A stretch of DNA of 64,000 nucleotides from Alphaproteobacteria bacterium (GCA_045590955.1 JAZNSB010000059.1:2760-66759); one strand, 5' to 3'. Positions 9,343-30,801 are shown, counted from the first letter of the stretch. Translations and numbers: made by a program. The notes: generated by a model not told the origin, from the sequence alone.

Positions 9343-10599
9343 ATGAAAAAAAATTACAAATTAGCATTACTGTGCACTGCCGGCGCATTAATAATGAGCA
9401 ATGTAGCTCATGCAAGCGGTTATCAGTTAAATGAATTTTCTGCCACAGGATTGGGAAGAGCTTTTTCCGGCGCAGGTATTGTTGGCGACGACTATTCTGC
9501 CATTGCGTTTAACCCTGCAGGCATGATGTTAAAAGATTCCGGCATCCAAGGCGGATTAACCTCTGTTCAGATGCATTCAAACGTAACCGGAGAAATTGAA
9601 TCTACCATCCCTTACCCCAATACTCCAAACGGACGTATGAATTTATGGAAGGCTTTACCACACTTTTTCGGACAATACAAATTAAACGACAAAACCAGAG
9701 TTGGTTTGGGCGTATATTCTCCGTTTGGTTTGGCATCAGTATATAACTATAATTGGTTTGGTGCGGGACACGGCACAAAAACAGAATTGGAAGTTGTAGA
9801 TGTTGCTGCAGCTTTGGCATATCAAATAGATCCCAAAGTAAGCATTGGTGGTTCTGTGATTTACAGATATGTTCATGGCAACCTTATCAATGCTTTTACA
9901 AAAAGCGGATACTTTTTTCCCGGCACTGTAAACCAAATGGACTTAGACGGCTGGGATTTTGCATATAGCTTTGGCCTTATGTTTGAACCCGTAAAAGGCA
10001 CACGTTTTGGTGCATCATACAGAATAAACAATGCACATACCGTAAAAGGTCAAAACAAAATTTATGGATTGACCACACCTCCGTTTAGCGCATTAAACGG
10101 TATTTATGAAGGTCGTTCTACCATGACTTTGCCGGACACATTAACATTGTCTGCTTTTCATAAGTTGAACGACAAAATTGACCTAACGGCAACAGCCAGA
10201 TACACACGTTGGTCTGTATTTGACGACTTTGTAATGCAAACAACTGCCGGTGGCGGATCTGTTGTAAGAATTCCGGAACGTTGGGGCAATGTATGGACAT
10301 ATTCTTTAGGTATGGATTACCATTACAACGACAACTGGACATTCAGAACCGGTGTTGCCTATGACCCAACTCCAATCAGAAACTCAACATTCCGCACAGC
10401 CAGAATTCCTGATTCTGACAGATTTTGGGTAACTGTTGGTACCAGCTATAAAAAAGACAACATGCAATTTGACCTCGGATATTCCCACCTGTTTATGCGC
10501 ACAGGCAGATCAAACAATACATACGAAGGCTTAACATTGCATACACGTCATGAAAATTACAGCAACATGATTGGAGCGCAAATTCAATATAATTTCTAA
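9343..10599 (+). CDS. fadL: FadL/OmpP1-family outer-membrane transporter for hydrophobic compounds
   Basis: A signal peptide is followed by the conserved N-terminal hatch motif GYQLNEFSATGLGRAFSGAG. The protein is 418 aa with a C-terminal aromatic residue (…QYNF). Confidence 0.75.
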   Translation: MKKNYKLALLCTAGALIMSNVAHASGYQLNEFSATGLGRAFSGAGIVGDDYSAIAFNPAGMMLKDSGIQGGLTSVQMHSNVTGEIESTIPYPNTPNGRMNLWKALPHFFGQYKLNDKTRVGLGVYSPFGLASVYNYNWFGAGHGTKTELEVVDVAAALAYQIDPKVSIGGSVIYRYVHGNLINAFTKSGYFFPGTVNQMDLDGWDFAYSFGLMFEPVKGTRFGASYRINNAHTVKGQNKIYGLTTPPFSALNGIYEGRSTMTLPDTLTLSAFHKLNDKIDLTATARYTRWSVFDDFVMQTTAGGGSVVRIPERWGNVWTYSLGMDYHYNDNWTFRTGVAYDPTPIRNSTFRTARIPDSDRFWVTVGTSYKKDNMQFDLGYSHLFMRTGRSNNTYEGLTLHTRHENYSNMIGAQIQYNF

Positions 10600-21477: not shown

Positions 21478-22320
21478 ATGTATTACCACTTTGAGCGAGA
21501 ATTGAAAAATATCCAAAACAATATCCAAGATAATGAAAAATATTATGACAAAGATAAAGTAAGGATGTTTGGTGATAAGCTTAAATTAGCCGATTTATGC
21601 ACGAGGATATATTTTGAAAGAGAAAAGTTGTTGCGTGAACAAAAAGAAACAACGGATGCAGAAAAACTGCAAAAATTGAAAGAGCAAACTGCAAACTTAG
21701 ATCAATTTATAGAAGAAAATAAATTAAGAGAAAAGAGGGATGAGGCTTTTGAATATATTCGAAAAACAAGTCCCATGTATAAAAAACTTTATGAGTCTGG
21801 AGCGAGGTTAGGAATTGACTACATTGTAATACCTGACGGCGCAGCATATCACTATCCCGCAACATCAATTGATCATAGACCAGATAGATGTTTTATTGAT
21901 TATGAACGATTAGGATATGAAAAAGGAAAGCCTTGTGAAAATTACAACAGTGGGGCTTGTGTTGTTTTTGACGGGGAAGATTTAATATTAACGTGTGATT
22001 GTTCATTATATGAGTCTTTAACAAGAAGTTGTAAATATGAAACACGGGGAGGCATTCCTTTTTACAATGGTGGTCAGGAGATGTATTTTGATAGTGTCCC
22101 TTTAGAAAGACAGTTTGAAGGAATGATAATACAGACCAAAGGAAATAATTATCAACTTGTTCCTTTAGGACTTGGAGACCAAAGAAGCTATAAAGATGAA
22201 ATGCTTTGGAAGTTGTTAAGACAAAAGAGACATAATCAAAAAGGCTTTCATGGACCAAGAAAAAGACGCCCTTTACCAACAGAGGACAGGTTCAACGTCA
22301 GAGGAGGGGGGAGAGAGTAG
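21478..22320 (+). CDS. Hypothetical protein, GC-richer than its surroundings, with an N-terminal coiled-coil and a Cys-rich C-terminal half; an orphan cargo gene
   Basis: A 280-aa ORF with a consensus promoter and SD. Its composition (gggg/agg-rich, ending ...RGGGRE) is atypical for the window. Confidence 0.5.
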   Translation: MYYHFERELKNIQNNIQDNEKYYDKDKVRMFGDKLKLADLCTRIYFEREKLLREQKETTDAEKLQKLKEQTANLDQFIEENKLREKRDEAFEYIRKTSPMYKKLYESGARLGIDYIVIPDGAAYHYPATSIDHRPDRCFIDYERLGYEKGKPCENYNSGACVVFDGEDLILTCDCSLYESLTRSCKYETRGGIPFYNGGQEMYFDSVPLERQFEGMIIQTKGNNYQLVPLGLGDQRSYKDEMLWKLLRQKRHNQKGFHGPRKRRPLPTEDRFNVRGGGRE

Positions 22321-22374
22321 TTGGTTCAAGGATTGTAAAGTGTTATAATTGTTTGAACCATGAATTTCTGATGA

Positions 22375-22410
22375 AAAAACAAGAGGTTAGATATCAAAAT
22401 CTAACCTCTA
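22375..22410 (-). terminator. Rho-independent terminator read on the minus strand
   Basis: Minus strand: gaggttagat-tttgat-atctaacctc (10-bp stem) followed by ttgtttttt. Confidence 0.55.
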
Positions 22411-22416
22411 TTCAAA

Positions 22417-22434
22417 TTGGCTGCTTGACCTGGA
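22417..22434. repeat. 18-bp direct repeat of the tRNA-Gln 3' end (ttggctgcttgacctgga); att-like
   Basis: It is identical to 22570..22587, which covers the 3' acceptor/T-stem of the tRNA-Gln gene. Confidence 0.7.
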
Positions 22435-22539
22435 AGTATTGAGCTTTTCAAGCTCAATGATCTTACCGCGGGCAGACATATACCTGCCCGCATTGCGATT
22501 CCGAACGGTTGGTTCGAGCCCAATGATAAAACAGCCAAC

Positions 22540-22568
22540 AAAAAAAGCACCACAAGGGTGCTGTTTTT
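22540..22568. terminator. Bidirectional hairpin terminator immediately 3' of tRNA-Gln
   Basis: gcacc-acaag-ggtgc with A-run/T-run on both sides. Read on the minus strand it is gcacccttgtggtgcttttttt, nearly identical to the terminator after tRNA-Thr. Confidence 0.55.
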
Positions 22569-22570
22569 AT

Positions 22571-22644
22571 TGGCTGCTTGACCTGGATTCGAACCAAGAT
22601 TAACGGAGTCAGAGTCCGCTGTCCTACCATTAGACGATCAAGCA
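22571..22644 (-). tRNA. tRNA-Gln (anticodon CUG)
   Basis: Minus-strand RNA TGCTTGATCGTCTAATGGTAGGACAGCGGACTCTGACTCCGTTAATCTTGGTTCGAATCCAGGTCAAGCAGCCA. It has a 7-bp acceptor stem, a GGTTCGAATCC T-arm, an anticodon loop CT-CTG-AC, discriminator G and encoded CCA. The 3' half is very similar to E. coli tRNA-Gln. Confidence 0.85.
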
Positions 22645-22705
22645 ATTATAATTTTCTGTGTTTTTATGCTTTTTATCATACTTTGTCAATAATTTTATTT
22701 AAAAA

Positions 22706-22745
22706 AACAACCGGCCACTCATTTCTGAGAAAGCCGGTTTGTTTT
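22706..22745 (-). terminator. Terminator of the M15 peptidase gene
   Basis: aaccggc...gccggtt inverted repeat followed by a T-run on the minus strand. Confidence 0.5.
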
Positions 22746-22748
22746 TCA

Positions 22749-23312
22749 CTAAATGTCAAAGACATTAAAGGCTCCGTACCAAATGTGGTCTGAAATATCC
22801 ACGTTTGGGAACCTTCGCTCAAACTCTGCTTGCGACATATACACCGCAAAATAGACATTTGGCATGACAACGCTGTTGTCTCTCTTGCCTCTAAAATAAC
22901 CGGACCTATCCAAAATGCAGGTGTGAGACACCTCAGCAGGATTTGGATCTTTTACATCCAGAGCATAACAGCTATGATGCACCTTGCGCATCATAATGTT
23001 ATTGATCTTACTTGAGGTTGTCCATGGCACATAACCATAAGTCAATCCCTCGCCTGTCAGTCCCAGTTCTTCGGCTTTTTGTTTAATCAACTCCAAGCCC
23101 TCGGCCTTATTAGCCATTGTTGCAATAGGGAAAATGCTCACAATCACAACCTCTCCGTCACGATTGGATATATCCAATGCAAACTCCGGAAAGTCTCCTC
23201 CTCTATATTCACTGAGGTCTCCCTCAAAATTTTCCGGAAACTCATACTCGCTTTTTTTAAGCTGAGGGAGCTGAGTGGACAACAAGTTCAACAATACTAA
23301 ATGCTTTTTCAT
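22749..23312 (-). CDS. Secreted peptidase M15-like (VanY-type D,D-carboxypeptidase / L-Ala-D-Glu peptidase fold); possible cell-wall hydrolase
   Basis: A signal peptide, then VHHSCYALDV aligns with the VanY SxHxxGxAxD motif (G replaced by C), with a later DISDHIW His. The gene lies between two tRNA genes. Confidence 0.45.
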   Translation of the reverse strand: MKKHLVLLNLLSTQLPQLKKSEYEFPENFEGDLSEYRGGDFPEFALDISNRDGEVVIVSIFPIATMANKAEGLELIKQKAEELGLTGEGLTYGYVPWTTSSKINNIMMRKVHHSCYALDVKDPNPAEVSHTCILDRSGYFRGKRDNSVVMPNVYFAVYMSQAEFERRFPNVDISDHIWYGAFNVFDI

Positions 23313-23438
23313 AGCTTAATTTTTTTAAAACAAACATAATTATTGTGATAAACACATATTTTCGTATTTTGGAGAATAACATCATTTTTTATAAAAATCA
23401 AGCATCTTTATTTTTTTTTGTAAAAAAATAATTTTATA

Positions 23439-23467
23439 TTGACAACAATAAAACAGTAATATATAAA
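23439..23467 (+). promoter_or_regulatory. sigma70-like promoter for tRNA-Thr
   Basis: ttgaca(23439-23444), a 17-nt spacer, tataaa(23462-23467), 13 nt upstream of the tRNA 5' end. Confidence 0.5.
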
Positions 23468-23480
23468 CTCAAGCACAAAC

Positions 23481-23556
23481 GCCGACATAGCTCAGTTGGT
23501 AGAGCAACTGATTTGTAATCAGTGGGTCCGGAGTTCAAGTCTCTCTGTCGGCACCA
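23481..23556 (+). tRNA. tRNA-Thr (anticodon UGU)
   Basis: GCCGACATAGCTCAGTTGGTAGAGCAACTGATTTGTAATCAGTGGGTCCGGAGTTCAAGTCTCTCTGTCGGCACCA. A GCCGAYATAGCTCAGTTGGTAGAGC-type 5' half, anticodon loop TT-TGT-AA, and encoded CCA. Confidence 0.85.
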
Positions 23557-23565
23557 TTAAAACAA

Positions 23566-23594
23566 AAACGCACCTTTGTGGTGCTTTTTTTGTT
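23566..23594 (+). terminator. Rho-independent terminator after tRNA-Thr
   Basis: gcacc-tttgt-ggtgc followed by ttttttt. Confidence 0.6.
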
Positions 23595-23797
23595 TTAAAT
23601 CGTGTTGATTTGAGGTTCGAATTTCCGACCCACTTGGTGTCGGGGCGAGGCAGAAAAAAGCCAAAAGTAATTGGCTTTTTTCAACGCAGGTTACGCTTTT
23701 GTTAGCTTGTGAGCAAGTGGCAACGACGCGAAACAAGCGTTACAAAGGCGGTGACCGAAGTGAGTTAGTAAGCCGAAGGCGAACTTACGAACAAGAA

Positions 23798-23824
23798 CAA
23801 GTCTCTCTGTCGGCACCATTAAAA
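23798..23824. repeat. 27-bp direct repeat of the tRNA-Thr 3' end (caagtctctctgtcggcaccattaaaa); att-like
   Basis: It is identical to 23536..23562. It is followed by the hairpin tccccctttcatggggga plus a T-run at 23825..23850. Confidence 0.7.
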
Positions 23825-23984
23825 AAATCCCCCTTTCATGGGGGATTTTTATTTTAAATAACATTTGATTTTTACAATAAAATAGGCAGAACCACCAAGA
23901 AAAGCAGACGAAAACACTATTGCACCATTATAAAAAAAGATATATAATCAAACAAAAATCAATTATTATAAATAAATTTAAATT

Positions 23985-24443
23985 ATGAGAATCTTTTCAT
24001 TCAGGAAACCCATTGTTATCAATGGAGAAAACATCGTGATTAATGATTTAGCATTCAATCACAAATACAAAAAAGAAAAAAATTGCCTTATTGTTGTAGG
24101 CAAAATTAAGGATTGTACAATCTCTTACAGAGCTGTCTATGACCTAAACGGCAAGTTTATGTTTTTAAAACTATACAAACATAAACGCCTCTGTGCTCTC
24201 GTTTCTTGGAAACAAGAATACGACATTGAAGATGTTGAAACGATAAACAAAGATGGCAACAGAAACATCGTTACCAGCAAATATCTTTCAACAGCTAAGA
24301 TTCAACACAAGTTAGTAGAAAAGTCATTCTACACTTGTGTAAATAACGAAGTCCATAACAAAGTATTCCGATTAACAGATGGAAAATGGACTTCAGAAGG
24401 AGATTTTCCAAAAAGTCATTTAGCCTACTGGATTTCTCAGTAA
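23985..24443 (+). CDS. Hypothetical protein (152 aa)
   Basis: A clean ORF followed by a strong terminator at 24453..24486. No recognisable domain. Confidence 0.4.
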   Translation: MRIFSFRKPIVINGENIVINDLAFNHKYKKEKNCLIVVGKIKDCTISYRAVYDLNGKFMFLKLYKHKRLCALVSWKQEYDIEDVETINKDGNRNIVTSKYLSTAKIQHKLVEKSFYTCVNNEVHNKVFRLTDGKWTSEGDFPKSHLAYWISQ

Positions 24444-24452
24444 AACATCATC

Positions 24453-24486
24453 CCCTCACAATTTTATTGTTGTGAGGGGCTTTTAT
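24453..24486. terminator. Bidirectional terminator between convergent genes
   Basis: cccctcacaa-ttttatt-gttgtgagggg followed by cttttat. Confidence 0.6.
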
Positions 24487-24545
24487 ATAGTGGTTATAAG
24501 AAAATATAGCTCAAAACCTTTTTTTTATCTTTAACAACACTTTTC

Positions 24546-25637
24546 TCATCTAATATTCAAACGTGACACCAGAGCTTTTTGTTCTGCAAATTCTTTTGCT
24601 GTCATCACATTTTTTCCTGCCTCTAAAGGCTTAAACAAGTGGTCATTAGCCGTATAATTTACAAGACCATCATCTGCCCTGGGGGAAAGATAGCGATTGA
24701 AGTTGTGAAAAGGTGTTTCTGTAAGCTGCATAGTCGTCCCTATTGGCATAGAAAAATCCTCTCCATTACGCCAATTTGCATATTTTTTCATATCTTCATT
24801 AGAGCTTGGATAGATTTTTTCAAAACCTTTCATATAACTAAACAACCTTGCCTCTGTATCTTGAAGTTTTGGCTCTGTAAAATAAGAACCTTTTGCTTCC
24901 ATTTTAATTTCTGGCATTCTTTTTTGTGCGCTTTCCATCAAAAGAGCAATCTCTGCCAAAGCTTTATCTTTTTCTGCATCAGACATACTTGAACCAAAAT
25001 GTTGCATACGAACAATGTTTTGATAAGCGGTATGCATTGCCACAGAAAACTGCTCATTTTCAAGCTTATCATATAGATTTTCCGGTTTTATTTCTTTTTG
25101 AAGTTGTGGAGTCTCTAATCCCTGCAATTCTTTTATACGCTTACGGGCATGCCCTGTCCCCCTGACTACTGCATCTATTTTTCTAACAAGTGAAGATGAT
25201 GCCATAACATTTGCTTTTACTCTCTCAAATCTTTCTTTTTGTACTTGCCTGTAAGTCTTTTTTCCAACAAGAAATTCCCCCATCAATATCATATCTTTAC
25301 CATAATTTTCAGATAATTTCTGAAAGAAATTTCTTTTTTTCTGTGGCTTTACTCCCATATAAGTTGTCTTTCCGTCGGAAGTTTTTACTTTTACGGCAGC
25401 AGAAAGATCATATTTTGCAGCCATTTCATTGTCTTTACTCTGCTCTTTTATTGATGATTTCAAAATTTCAAAAGACTGTTTAGCTACATCAAAAAATCTT
25501 TGTGCTCTTTCTTTATCTCTTTCTCCAAGATCTTTACACGCCTCTTTAAAAGAGATTTTTCCCGCAGCAACATCACCCATCAAATATAAAAAATCTGCAA
25601 ATGTTGAATGTCTGGTAATTTTCTTTTCTTCTGGCAT
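24546..25637 (-). CDS. Hypothetical protein (about 360 aa, mostly helical, no signal peptide)
   Basis: A long ORF whose probable start is MPEEKKITRH (25637); the upstream ORF extension is hydrophobic. No recognisable family. It is divergent from an XRE regulator. Confidence 0.4.
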   Translation of the reverse strand: MPEEKKITRHSTFADFLYLMGDVAAGKISFKEACKDLGERDKERAQRFFDVAKQSFEILKSSIKEQSKDNEMAAKYDLSAAVKVKTSDGKTTYMGVKPQKKRNFFQKLSENYGKDMILMGEFLVGKKTYRQVQKERFERVKANVMASSSLVRKIDAVVRGTGHARKRIKELQGLETPQLQKEIKPENLYDKLENEQFSVAMHTAYQNIVRMQHFGSSMSDAEKDKALAEIALLMESAQKRMPEIKMEAKGSYFTEPKLQDTEARLFSYMKGFEKIYPSSNEDMKKYANWRNGEDFSMPIGTTMQLTETPFHNFNRYLSPRADDGLVNYTANDHLFKPLEAGKNVMTAKEFAEQKALVSRLNIR

Positions 25638-25684
25638 TGTCCACCTCCTATAACACATTACATATATAAATAAAATACCACAAA

Positions 25685-25702
25685 TGTTGACTAAAGTCAA
25701 CA
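25685..25702. promoter_or_regulatory. Perfect palindromic candidate operator tgttgac-taaa-gtcaaca between divergent genes
   Basis: A 7-4-7 inverted repeat in the 110-bp divergent intergenic region between the XRE gene and the 24546..25637 gene. Confidence 0.5.
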
Positions 25703-25746
25703 CCATTTAATTTTTAACATCTATAATGTTCAAAGGTAGGTAAACA

Positions 25747-25956
25747 TTGAGTAACAGATTGCAAATCATAGGCTCAAACATACGCCAGCACCGCAAAGAA
25801 CAAAATCTGTTACAGATTGATTTAGCTGTTATGGTAGGTATTGATAGAGCATATTTATCAGAAATTGAAAATGGTAAAACAAATGTTTCAATTGGTCTTT
25901 TATATGCAATCGCAGACGCATTAAAAATATCAATATGCTCCATTTTGCCACAATAA
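25747..25956 (+). CDS. XRE-family (Cro/CI-type) HTH transcriptional regulator, TTG start
   Basis: QNLLQIDLAVMVGIDRAYLSEIENGKTNVSIGLLYAIADAL is a canonical HTH_XRE. RBS aggtagg. It is preferred over the overlapping minus-strand ORF 25707..25943. Confidence 0.7.
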   Translation: MSNRLQIIGSNIRQHRKEQNLLQIDLAVMVGIDRAYLSEIENGKTNVSIGLLYAIADALKISICSILPQ

Positions 25957-29685: not shown

Positions 29686-30750
29686 TTACATTCTTTCAAA
29701 AAAGTTATCAAAAAATTCATTCAACAATCGTGGATGGTTTTCACTATTAAAAGCATCTGTAATAAACTTTTTAAGTTTCTCTTGAGAAATTCTTATTCTA
29801 AAGTCTTTTGGCGCGGCATTTTCTGCCCCTATAACTCCCATTATATTAAAATCTTCATCTATTTCTTCTTTTGCCAAAACAATGCTCATATCCGTAAACT
29901 TTAACATTCCTCGTGGAGGCAACCTCAAATCTGCTCTTGAAATAAGATTAATTTGTCCCTCAATGCCGGATACACTATCCATTTGATTATTCGCACTAAA
30001 GCGCACTTTATTATAATCCCCACCGGTTTCTCTGGTATTGCAAGACAAATAAATTTCTCTGGCGATTGCATTGCTGTTATTTTCTGCCGCCAACATAAAA
30101 CTGATTTTCACATATTTTTCAGGAGGATTATCAATACTTTTTGGATACAAGACATCTTCATCTGCATTTTCAATAATTTCAATTTTTTTATTTTCAATTA
30201 TTAAATCAATGTTTGGTTGCGGACGCTTTCCAAACATTCCGGCAATAACAGAATAAGGAGCCGGCACATTATTAGAGCCGGAACGAATATAAATTCTGTT
30301 ACCAACAGTTGACATAAGTGGTGCAGTCTCAGATTTTGGAATATATGTTGCAATATATCCATCTCCGTTAGCGTCGCTTGCAATAATGTGATTTCTTACT
30401 TTGTTATGAGAAGGCAACGTACAACCGGAAATTGCTCCTTCAAGCCAACTTAAAAAACGATGCACATTTTTTACTTTAACTTTTGCCTTTGCCACATCTC
30501 CAATTTCCACATCTCTGGAACATTCCACCCCCCAAACAATTACTCCTCCTTCAGAATTTCCAAATCCTGAAATTGCTTTGGCCAGGTTTTTTCTGTCATC
30601 TCTGTGCAGAGTATACATTTTTTGACCGGTAGAGGCAGCCTTTTTAAAATCTAAAAAAAGCTCTTCTGTTTGCAAATCAAGAATAAATTCATCTATTGCA
30701 TCTTCGCCAAAATATACCAAACGGTTAAAAATATCTTCTGCTCTGGACAT
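29686..30750 (-). CDS. AlbA_2 / Schlafen-like domain protein (putative ATP-dependent DNA-binding regulator)
   Basis: FLDFKKAASTGQKMYTLHRDDRKNLAKAISGFGNSEGGVIVWGV matches the AlbA_2 core. The start is chosen at MSRAEDIF, which has an aggag RBS. Confidence 0.5.
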   Translation of the reverse strand: MSRAEDIFNRLVYFGEDAIDEFILDLQTEELFLDFKKAASTGQKMYTLHRDDRKNLAKAISGFGNSEGGVIVWGVECSRDVEIGDVAKAKVKVKNVHRFLSWLEGAISGCTLPSHNKVRNHIIASDANGDGYIATYIPKSETAPLMSTVGNRIYIRSGSNNVPAPYSVIAGMFGKRPQPNIDLIIENKKIEIIENADEDVLYPKSIDNPPEKYVKISFMLAAENNSNAIAREIYLSCNTRETGGDYNKVRFSANNQMDSVSGIEGQINLISRADLRLPPRGMLKFTDMSIVLAKEEIDEDFNIMGVIGAENAAPKDFRIRISQEKLKKFITDAFNSENHPRLLNEFFDNFFERM

Positions 30751-30801
30751 ATTTTTTCTCCTGTTAAAGAATTTATGCCCATAATAAAACAAAAAGCTTA
30801 A

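Follow-up and report, generated by a model that had tools for sequence, protein, structure and literature searches.

The subject of this analysis is a 64,000-nucleotide stretch of an Alphaproteobacteria bacterium genome (GCA_045590955.1, JAZNSB010000059.1:2760-66759), the whole of which is referred to as the window, and within it a short insert at the 3' end of the tRNA-Thr(UGU) gene. An exact 27-bp repeat at this gene is the footprint of DNA inserted into the tRNA 3' end, with the insert restoring the tRNA and displacing the original 3' fragment together with its terminator. The preferred reading, which is held at about even confidence, is that the inserted unit is an attP-sized, gene-less and non-autonomous integrative element, recombining within a segment of 19-27 bp by means of a recombinase supplied in trans. 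Related units were found at a second tRNA gene of the window and at tRNA and transfer-messenger RNA (tmRNA) genes of other genomes.

Repeat and insert at tRNA-Thr

The 27-mer CAAGTCTCTCTGTCGGCACCATTAAAA was found exactly at 23536-23562 and at 23798-23824, with two such matches being reached in none of 100 shuffles (0 expected). Copy 1 consists of the final 21 nt of tRNA-Thr(UGU) plus 6 nt, and copy 2 ends in ...GGCACCA and TTAAAA, followed by a terminator hairpin (23823-23850). The 235 bp between the copies have a G+C content of 45.1%, compared with 35.5% for the whole window and 18-20% for the adjoining spacers, and hold two terminator-like hairpins (23570-23584 and 23654-23681) as well as GGTTCGAAT (23615-23623). 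These findings bear out a preliminary description of the locus, which had reported the exact duplication, a G+C-rich insert far above its surroundings with two hairpins and a GGTTCGAAT-containing segment, and a second copy ending in GGCACCA ahead of a hairpin terminator. It had also raised the prospect of further 27-mer copies marking a far attR, and no third copy was found in the 64 kb window with up to three mismatches allowed.

Past the 27-mer a weaker likeness continues, 23564-23600 and 23823-23859 being 70% identical with hairpin stems which differ in a compensated manner. The Thr unit measures 262 bp and can be delimited as 23563-23824 or, equivalently, as 23536-23797. From the T-loop onward, the 3' part of tRNA-Thr is supplied by the inserted element, and the extended hairpin F-H1-F' directly behind the CCA is an element-borne bidirectional terminator. 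There follows an imperfect inverted copy of the 3' part of the tRNA, in which GAGGTTCGAATTTCCGACCCACT (23612-23634) is the reverse complement of the variable loop and T-arm; the first part of this region (23599-23611) also resembles the native flank of relatives. Behind hairpin H2 the variable loop and the 5' strand of the T-stem are copied in part and in direct orientation (GTCGGGGCGAGG), and a subterminal hairpin (GTAAG...CTTAC, 23768-23788) is located 10 nt ahead of the right junction.

The second element at tRNA-Gln

The tRNA-Gln(CUG) gene, 900 bp away, bears an element too and therefore both tRNAs of the window are occupied. Here the last 17 nt of the tRNA plus 2 nt (19 bp) are duplicated exactly (22569-22587 and 22416-22434) around an insert of 134 bp with 46% G+C, and the terminator behind repeat copy 2 differs from that of the element itself. 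The order on the minus strand is H1 (about 22546-22562), an inverted copy of the tRNA-Gln 3' end and T-arm (22538-22509), GTTCGGAATCG (22506-22496), a GC hairpin (~22491-22468), a subterminal hairpin (22457-22439) and repeat copy 2. A nearly identical 31-nt hairpin, AAAAAC(A)GCACCnTTGTGGTGCTTTTTTTGTT (H1), was found directly 3' of both tRNAs and nowhere else in the window. H1 and the native hairpins of both tRNAs were recovered in a scan for intrinsic terminators, which returned 11 sites against 1.4 expected. No genes were found inside the 235-bp and 134-bp inserts, and no promoter-like site was found inside the Thr unit.

Table 1. Features of the two tRNA loci in the window (L numbers denote related loci in other genomes)
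Feature	Position	Strand	Basis or remark
Native tRNA-Gln terminator, displaced by the Gln-type element	22382..22409	-	terminator scan
Gln-type element	22416..22570	-	F-H1-F', inverted copy, hairpins, direct repeat
tRNA-Gln(CUG)	22571..22644	-	ARAGORN, Rfam; bears second element of the same family on its 3' side
tRNA-Thr(UGU), intact	23481..23556	+	ARAGORN; Rfam tRNA 65.4 bits
Direct repeat copy 1: T-loop CAAGT, T-stem 3' strand, acceptor 3' strand, ACCA, TTAAAA	23536..23562	+	exact 27-mer
Extended hairpin F-H1-F' (ttaaaacaaaaac / GCACCTTTGTGGTGC / tttttttgttttaa)	23557..23598	+	H1 at 23570-23584
Inverted imperfect copy of tRNA-Thr 3' part	23599..23634	+	strongest at 23612-23634 (GAGGTTCGAATTTCCGACCCACT)
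Hairpin H2 (CCGACCC-ACTT-GGTGTCGG)	23626..23650	+	folds; comparison with other types
Hairpin H3 (aaaaaaGCCAAaagtaaTTGGCtttttt), second terminator-like hairpin, A-tract and T-tract at its sides	23654..23681	.	12-bp hairpin in all folds
GC-rich right-hand segment, 49% GC, nested hairpins	23682..23797	+	85-94% identical in L021, L014, L024
Direct repeat copy 2, displaced original 3' fragment of tRNA-Thr	23798..23824	+	exact 27-mer
Native tRNA-Thr terminator (AAAAATCCCCC-TTTCAT-GGGGGATTTTT), displaced by insertion	23823..23850	+	terminator scan

Family members in other genomes

Relatives were sought by scanning one genome per species for the H1 hairpin GCACCNTTGTGGTGCTTTTTTT, with taxon labels being those of the record titles. 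This yielded 37 loci, about 22 of which are in gut or rumen metagenome-assembled genomes (MAGs) labelled "Alphaproteobacteria bacterium". At 26 of the 37 the hairpin directly adjoins a 3' end, whether of a tRNA, of a tmRNA or of a tRNA fragment, and the other 11 are ordinary terminators; in one phage contig (IMG/VR) it serves at three places as a plain terminator. Since H1 also serves as a plain terminator elsewhere, it is not diagnostic on its own. In the IMG/VR contig (L038, 9879-11827) the exact hairpin GCACCCTTGTGGTGC with A- and T-tracts closes three consecutive phage genes, and tRNA-Val has the same 15-mer at its end in two Polaromonas MAGs (L001 and L022).

A recurrent layout was evident in the family. 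It begins with the tRNA and its CCA, an A-rich F, H1, a T-rich F' pairing with F, and an inverted copy of the T-arm and acceptor of that same tRNA. One to three more hairpins, a GC-rich segment and a closing hairpin 0-10 nt ahead of the junction come next, and the end is formed by a direct copy (the last 0-5 T-loop bases, the T-stem 3' strand, the acceptor 3' strand and CCA) and then the native terminator. An intact tRNA accompanied by a displaced direct 3' fragment was observed for both window tRNAs and at a minimum of 10 other loci (at least 10). The targets are Thr-UGU (the window, L014, L021, L024, L097 and L100), Gln-CUG (the window), Ser-CGA (L006 and L082), Ser-GGA (L002, L025, L026, L028 and L091), Ser-UGA (L033), Gly-CCC (L036), Phe (L037), Met (L020, a Planctomycetota MAG), tmRNA (L013, a Eubacterium MAG) and one tRNA of unassigned type (L030). 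The family spans these ten target types and three phyla (gut Alphaproteobacteria, Eubacterium and Planctomycetota MAGs), with sizes ranging from about 130 to 262 bp. Treating the GC-rich segment as an insertion exactly at the T-loop split was considered as a general rule and fits the Ser, Gln, Met and window Thr types; the Gly and L100 backbone has no tRNA-specific direct copy, so this feature is not universal.

A discrete and modular unit

The Thr unit was found to be 94% identical to that of L021 (over 224 nt), 89% to that of L014 and 85% to that of L024, with the same internal boundaries, and the flanking DNA does not align with any of the three. The neighbouring M24 peptidase shares only ~46% protein identity with its orthologues in L003 and L023. 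Comparison of the locus with relatives, which the preliminary description had advised, returned a syntenic empty site in addition to these homologous units: L023 has the M24 peptidase, a small open reading frame (ORF) and tRNA-Thr, followed by only H1 and native flank. The left 55 nt of the Thr unit match this L023 flank, and the att region of the element therefore carries at least 75 bp of an H1-type tRNA-Thr locus.

Tandem copies occur in L013, L020, L021, L033, L036 and L100. In L014 the middle hairpin is GCTCCGGTGGAGC in place of H3, a type also present in L013 and L036. In L097 a left block specific to Thr precedes a GC-rich segment that is Ser-like, and in L100 such a block is combined with the Gly-type backbone of L036. 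The central hairpin can differ in sequence with the layout being kept, as in L100, in L097 and in the first of the copies in L025. The left block, specific to the tRNA, and the backbone to its right are modules that can be exchanged.

Integration into a tRNA 3' end followed by decay had been put forward in the preliminary description. The insertion footprint, with its attL/attR geometry, stands; the random decay of a large island is not supported, as the unit is conserved in three other species at 85-94% identity and a fixed architecture recurs at a further nine or more (>=9) tRNA or tmRNA targets. That the locus is a passive scar, namely a tRNA-integrated island or prophage deleted down to its fused attL and attR ends and having no mobility, is very improbable. 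The geometry would fit, decayed or truncated copies do exist, and tRNA-Thr is a real phage target, with provirus edges holding displaced tRNA-Thr fragments. However, those fragments start in the anticodon loop, which is a different sublocation, and the same fusion point is found at this level of identity in four species with unalignable flanks. The identical layout at tRNA-Gln, the spread over so many target types and phyla, the tandem identical copies and the lack of island-type genes downstream likewise argue against a scar.

Scarcely conceivable is a local replication error in this genome only, by slippage or template switching at the terminator hairpin. In quasi-palindrome mutagenesis, template switching can yield direct and inverted short copies around a hairpin, which would account for the repeats; it leaves ~150 bp of the insert without a source in the window, and the unit recurs in other species and at other tRNAs.

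A further explanation is that no dedicated enzyme is involved and that the unit is a passenger spread by homologous recombination after DNA uptake (transformation or gene transfer agents). The tRNA gene would then be the left arm and the displaced fragment, with or without flank, the right arm, and one-sided events would give right-truncated copies. In keeping with this, the left end is always on the tRNA and right ends are often truncated at variable points with no repeat, the repeat reaches 90-190 bp (tRNA end plus flank) in L024 and L082, the match to the native L023 flank would be expected, and integrase-less cargo is present at the same sites. We nevertheless regard this explanation as unlikely. 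A length of 19-27 bp is marginal for RecA-dependent exchange, and the explanation accounts neither for the origin of the first 19-27 bp repeats nor for the constant repeat start at the T-loop/T-stem boundary in all ten target types, nor for the inverted target copy and fixed hairpin order kept across phyla.

The inverted copy and the fold of the unit

The correspondence of the inverted copy with the target tRNA was assessed in 15 elements representing nine target types, by pairing 16 nt of the tRNA, from the variable loop through the 5' strand of the T-stem to the T-loop, with sequence lying ~54-59 nt downstream. For a whole-unit covariance model, MAFFT failed to align the inverted part across types and a register-fixed pair count was used instead. 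Standard pairs were found in 84% of cells compared with 71% in shuffles, and changes on both sides in 36 cells compared with 13.7, the observed value being reached by 0 of 500 shuffles in each case. When the partner was slid by 1-3 columns, pairing fell to 19-47%.

Among single tRNAs, those without an element at the same loci scored 5-8 of 12 at scattered offsets and most of those bearing one scored 9-12 at offsets 54-59. The window tRNA-Gln, the Met type and the Gly of L036 reached only 8/12, so that the separation from the controls is incomplete. The window Thr element conforms to the family layout with 9/12 at offset 58 and the repeat at +246, and the Gln element with its inverted copy at 22538-22509 and the repeat at +137; the window inverted copies are clearest at 23612-23634 (Thr) and over this same Gln stretch. 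Because each element carries an inverted copy of the T-arm/acceptor region of its own tRNA, the 3' third of the tRNA and the left part of the element form, in every type, an imperfect palindrome with arms of ~40 bp and H1 at its centre. The lower stem F:F' also covaries among loci (caattac/gtaattg, agccaat/gttggct and aaacat/atgttt).

As RNA, the plus strand of the Thr unit folds at -106.4 kcal/mol (z = -6.0 versus shuffles) and the minus strand at -88.6 kcal/mol (z = -4.4); the plus strand as DNA has z = -5.0. The plus strand folds better in 10 of 12 units. Among the Ser types, compensatory hairpin changes are seen in the GC-rich segment, for example GGCG/CGCC, GGCA/TGCC and GCCA/TGGC. A hammerhead-like reading of CUGAUGAG in the Ser types was rejected, as its stems do not fit and there is no Rfam match.

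Searches for genes, RNAs and described relatives

The window is core chromosome, with genes for AspRS, LigA, RuvABC, Obg, L21 and FliM. No integrase or transposase was present among the 25 most frequent Pfam/PHROGs families listed for its 59 ORFs, and no recurrent one among the 25 listed for 101 ORFs lying <=4 kb from related copies, a form of count in which singletons may be missed. The mobile-element genes that the preliminary description had placed downstream were not recovered, no integrase, transposase or XRE gene being seen beside this or related copies. The ORFs at 23985-25943 (152, 386 and 78 aa) have no significant Pfam match, so its claim of an XRE repressor there is unsupported.

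With Rfam 15 (at gathering thresholds and at E<=10), nothing credible was detected in the window beyond the two tRNAs, including in 22200-24000 at E<=10, and 15 related loci gave only tRNA and tmRNA. ARAGORN found no tmRNA in the window, and the suggestion of a tmRNA- or signal recognition particle (SRP)-like RNA is refuted. A blastn search of the insert against phage and plasmid collections gave no match. In IMG/VR, internal motifs of the Thr and Ser types gave only chance matches in coding DNA, and the 24-nt tRNA-Thr end with flank gave none. No parental integrative and conjugative element (ICE), integrative and mobilizable element (IME) or phage with matching ends was found in the IMG/VR, phage and plasmid collections. 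An exact look-up of two flanking proteins returned no record, and literature searches found no paper describing these elements.

Proposed mechanism and alternatives

On the preferred reading of a trans-mobilised element, the left end, which re-creates the tRNA 3' end and supplies a strong bidirectional terminator, would let tRNA expression stay normal; with the host keeping a functional tRNA, insertion would be nearly neutral. Excision and integration would proceed by recombination in the shared segment of T-stem 3' strand, acceptor and CCA (19-27 bp), with the recombinase encoded elsewhere and a tyrosine integrase targeting tRNA 3' ends being the most likely candidate. The unit would act as an attP-only mini-island or minimal cis-mobilizable element, and it would have spread horizontally among gut Alphaproteobacteria and into other phyla. 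A lambda-type attP is ~240 bp long.

A number of observations weigh against this reading. No recombinase came to light in the searches, and no larger relative with the same ends and an integrase was seen. The repeat takes in only 0-5 of the 7 T-loop bases, so that the crossover site is undefined, and an inverted target copy is not known to be required in tyrosine-integrase attP sites. Distal copies are often right-truncated (L013, L024, L033, L037 and L100) and the single copies of L002, L026 and L028 are without a far repeat, so that frequent secondary deletions are needed; the high conservation could reflect function instead of recent transfer. In minimum free energy folds of the 12 units, 68 internal G.U pairs were counted on the plus strand compared with 20 on the minus strand (42 and 15, respectively, with one unit per type), and between the tRNA end and the reverse complement of the inverted copy there are 43 G.T but 23 A.C mismatches. 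This wobble asymmetry may point to a single-stranded form with the polarity of the tRNA, for which a duplex attP model has no need, and it is taken as a hint only, because strand-biased mutation (deamination) could give the same pattern.

Such a form is central to the alternative of single-strand, structure-guided insertion, in which single-stranded DNA (or RNA), folded in such a way that the inverted tRNA copy imitates the target or pairs with it, would be handled by an HUH/Y1 transposase (IS200/IS605, RAYT) or by a Xer- or integron-like recombinase, in the manner of CTX phage and integron attC sites. It would explain the long fold-back of tRNA and element in every type, the covariation of the inverted copy and hairpin lower stem with the target, the hairpins beside both ends, the central hairpin whose structure is kept as its sequence varies, and both the better folding and the wobble excess of the plus strand. 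We consider it unlikely all the same. Among the listed families there is no Y1, HUH or Xer-type gene near any copy, no conserved cleavage motif is present at the right junction, and the asymmetry could have the mutational explanation given above. Target repeats of 19-27 bp are foreign to IS200/IS605 elements, which are not known either to create or to carry them. The acceptor part of the inverted copy is also weak in the window Thr type, and the matching stretch is native flank in L023. Decidedly unlikely, in our estimation, is the more specific proposal that the inverted copy is a built-in guide, a folded single strand (DNA or RNA) pairing with or mimicking the 3' third of the tRNA and directing a trans-acting enzyme, with a swap of the left block sufficing for retargeting.

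The structured plus strand is also what would be expected of a host-useful RNA or terminator module kept by purifying selection, with a role in strong bidirectional termination, insulation, 3'-end processing or as a small RNA whose 3' end is tRNA-like. Conservation of the element far exceeds that of its flanks, the GC-rich segment hairpins show compensatory changes, GNRA-like loops close stems, the plus strand is G.U-rich, and H1 is an ordinary terminator elsewhere, as in the phage contig. This explanation is nonetheless quite improbable, as a close relative (L023) has an empty site, only some tRNAs are occupied, tandem and truncated copies exist, and the unit has neither a promoter-like site nor an Rfam family. 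The inverted-copy segment, moreover, lies between two terminators, so it is probably rarely transcribed.

Associated cargo and neighbouring genes

Behind two tandem Thr mini-elements in contig JAFVWM010000036 (L021 5640-8000 and L008 1-260, which are contiguous) there is a 2.5-kb integrase-less cargo encoding a B12-binding radical SAM protein, a UDG-family protein and a MazG-like protein, with degenerate tRNA-Thr 3' fragments at its borders. A conserved stretch of ~130 nt ahead of the last fragment is also present in L004 and L015. The second tandem element itself (L021 5443-5565) has ~120 bp extra in a loop of the GC-rich segment. This additional DNA holds a 33-codon ORF, with AAGGAGA as a Shine-Dalgarno-like sequence, and a small hairpin resembling a terminator; cargo is thus tolerated in that loop. 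In L082 (1-2320, minus strand), the native flank of tRNA-Ser(CGA) has been copied over ~190 bp directly behind the tRNA. Next come a gene for a 384-aa DndB-family (DGQHR) protein, a degenerate tRNA fragment, H1, one complete mini-element, the repeat and native flank, an arrangement which amounts to a long Campbell-type duplication without any integrase.

Displaced tRNA-Thr fragments lie directly upstream of the mini-elements at two IMG/VR provirus edges (L097 ~1500-1760 and L100 ~9800-10240). They begin in the anticodon loop, a classical phage att sublocation, so that one tRNA serves two kinds of element, each at a different sublocation.

For the ORFs surrounding the tRNA pair of the window (21478-25943; 280, 187, 152, 386 and 78 aa), neither a Pfam match nor a homologue in the syntenic L003 and L023 was found, and the stretch between the M24 peptidase and an AlgH-like gene may be strain-specific DNA. 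Further along, a 368-aa protein with a Schlafen/AlbA_2 domain (E = 3e-9) is encoded on the minus strand at 29686-30792, between RNase HI and an M16 peptidase; this may be a gene of the defence type, the region being otherwise one of housekeeping genes.

Significance and comparison with known systems

tRNA and tmRNA genes are classic landing sites, and the known players are kilobase-sized and bring their own integrase. If trans-mobilised, the units would be the smallest class of tDNA-integrating element, a marker for a recombinase yet to be found and a source of partial tRNA repeats by which island finders are confused. Integrase-less cargo of the defence type is present at the same sites, and the units may accordingly help to build such hotspots. 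If the inverted copy guides insertion, it would represent a new retargetable, naturally programmable principle of nucleic-acid-guided integration at tRNA genes.

Integron attC cassettes and the CTX-phage attP(+) hairpin (recognised by XerCD) are folded single-strand recombination sites, in which the folded strand imitates a duplex target. The mini-element resembles them in being short and near gene-less, in keeping an imperfect hairpin as the sequence varies and in its strand-specific wobble and mismatch patterns. Unlike them, it has a tRNA gene rather than attI or dif as its target and direct repeats of 19-27 bp, and no link to IntI or Xer was found.

With REPINs and IS200/IS605-derived elements (PMC3116915, PMC2817692) it shares a miniature, non-coding, hairpin-rich and extragenic character, a terminator role and non-autonomy. 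Hairpins lie near both of its ends, yet it has long direct repeats and no conserved junction motif, and no RAYT or TnpA was seen near its copies. REPINs differ in having hundreds of dispersed copies with no fixed gene, no target-matched inverted copy and no long target repeats. It also departs from miniature inverted-repeat transposable elements (MITEs), since its ends are not inverted copies of each other and its repeat is 19-27 bp of tRNA rather than 2-10 bp.

In tDNA integration of the Islander/TIGER class, by tyrosine integrases, the inserted DNA regenerates the tRNA, and the far end is recognisable by the displaced 3' fragment (PMC4383910). The mini-element agrees with such tRNA/tmRNA islands and prophages in the split gene, the restored 3' part, the displaced fragment, the use of tmRNA as a target and the tandem arrays (PMC4383910). 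By the Islander definition, the repeat is present (27/27 exact for Thr and 19/19 for Gln) and an integrase inside is absent. In contrast to islands, the mini-element is 134-262 bp rather than kilobases long, is without an integrase or any gene, and has an inverted target copy, a fixed hairpin series and the same backbone at many tRNAs.

The closest described category is that of the cis-mobilizable elements (CIMEs), decayed ICEs or IMEs which keep attL and attR and have lost the genes for integration and transfer (PMC5704250). The mini-element likewise has att-type repeats at a tRNA 3' end and no mobility genes, with presumed mobilisation by a helper in trans or in cis, and like CIMEs it occurs in tandem with other elements (accretion). 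Tandem arrays and adjoining integrase-less cargo were observed. CIMEs are decay products of a particular ICE or IME, whereas the mini-element is about the size of attP, is conserved across species and phyla and is retargeted in a modular fashion, with no parent found. Integration into tDNA with restoration of the gene is well known, but a miniature, integrase-less, target-mirroring and modular family extending across phyla appears to be undescribed.

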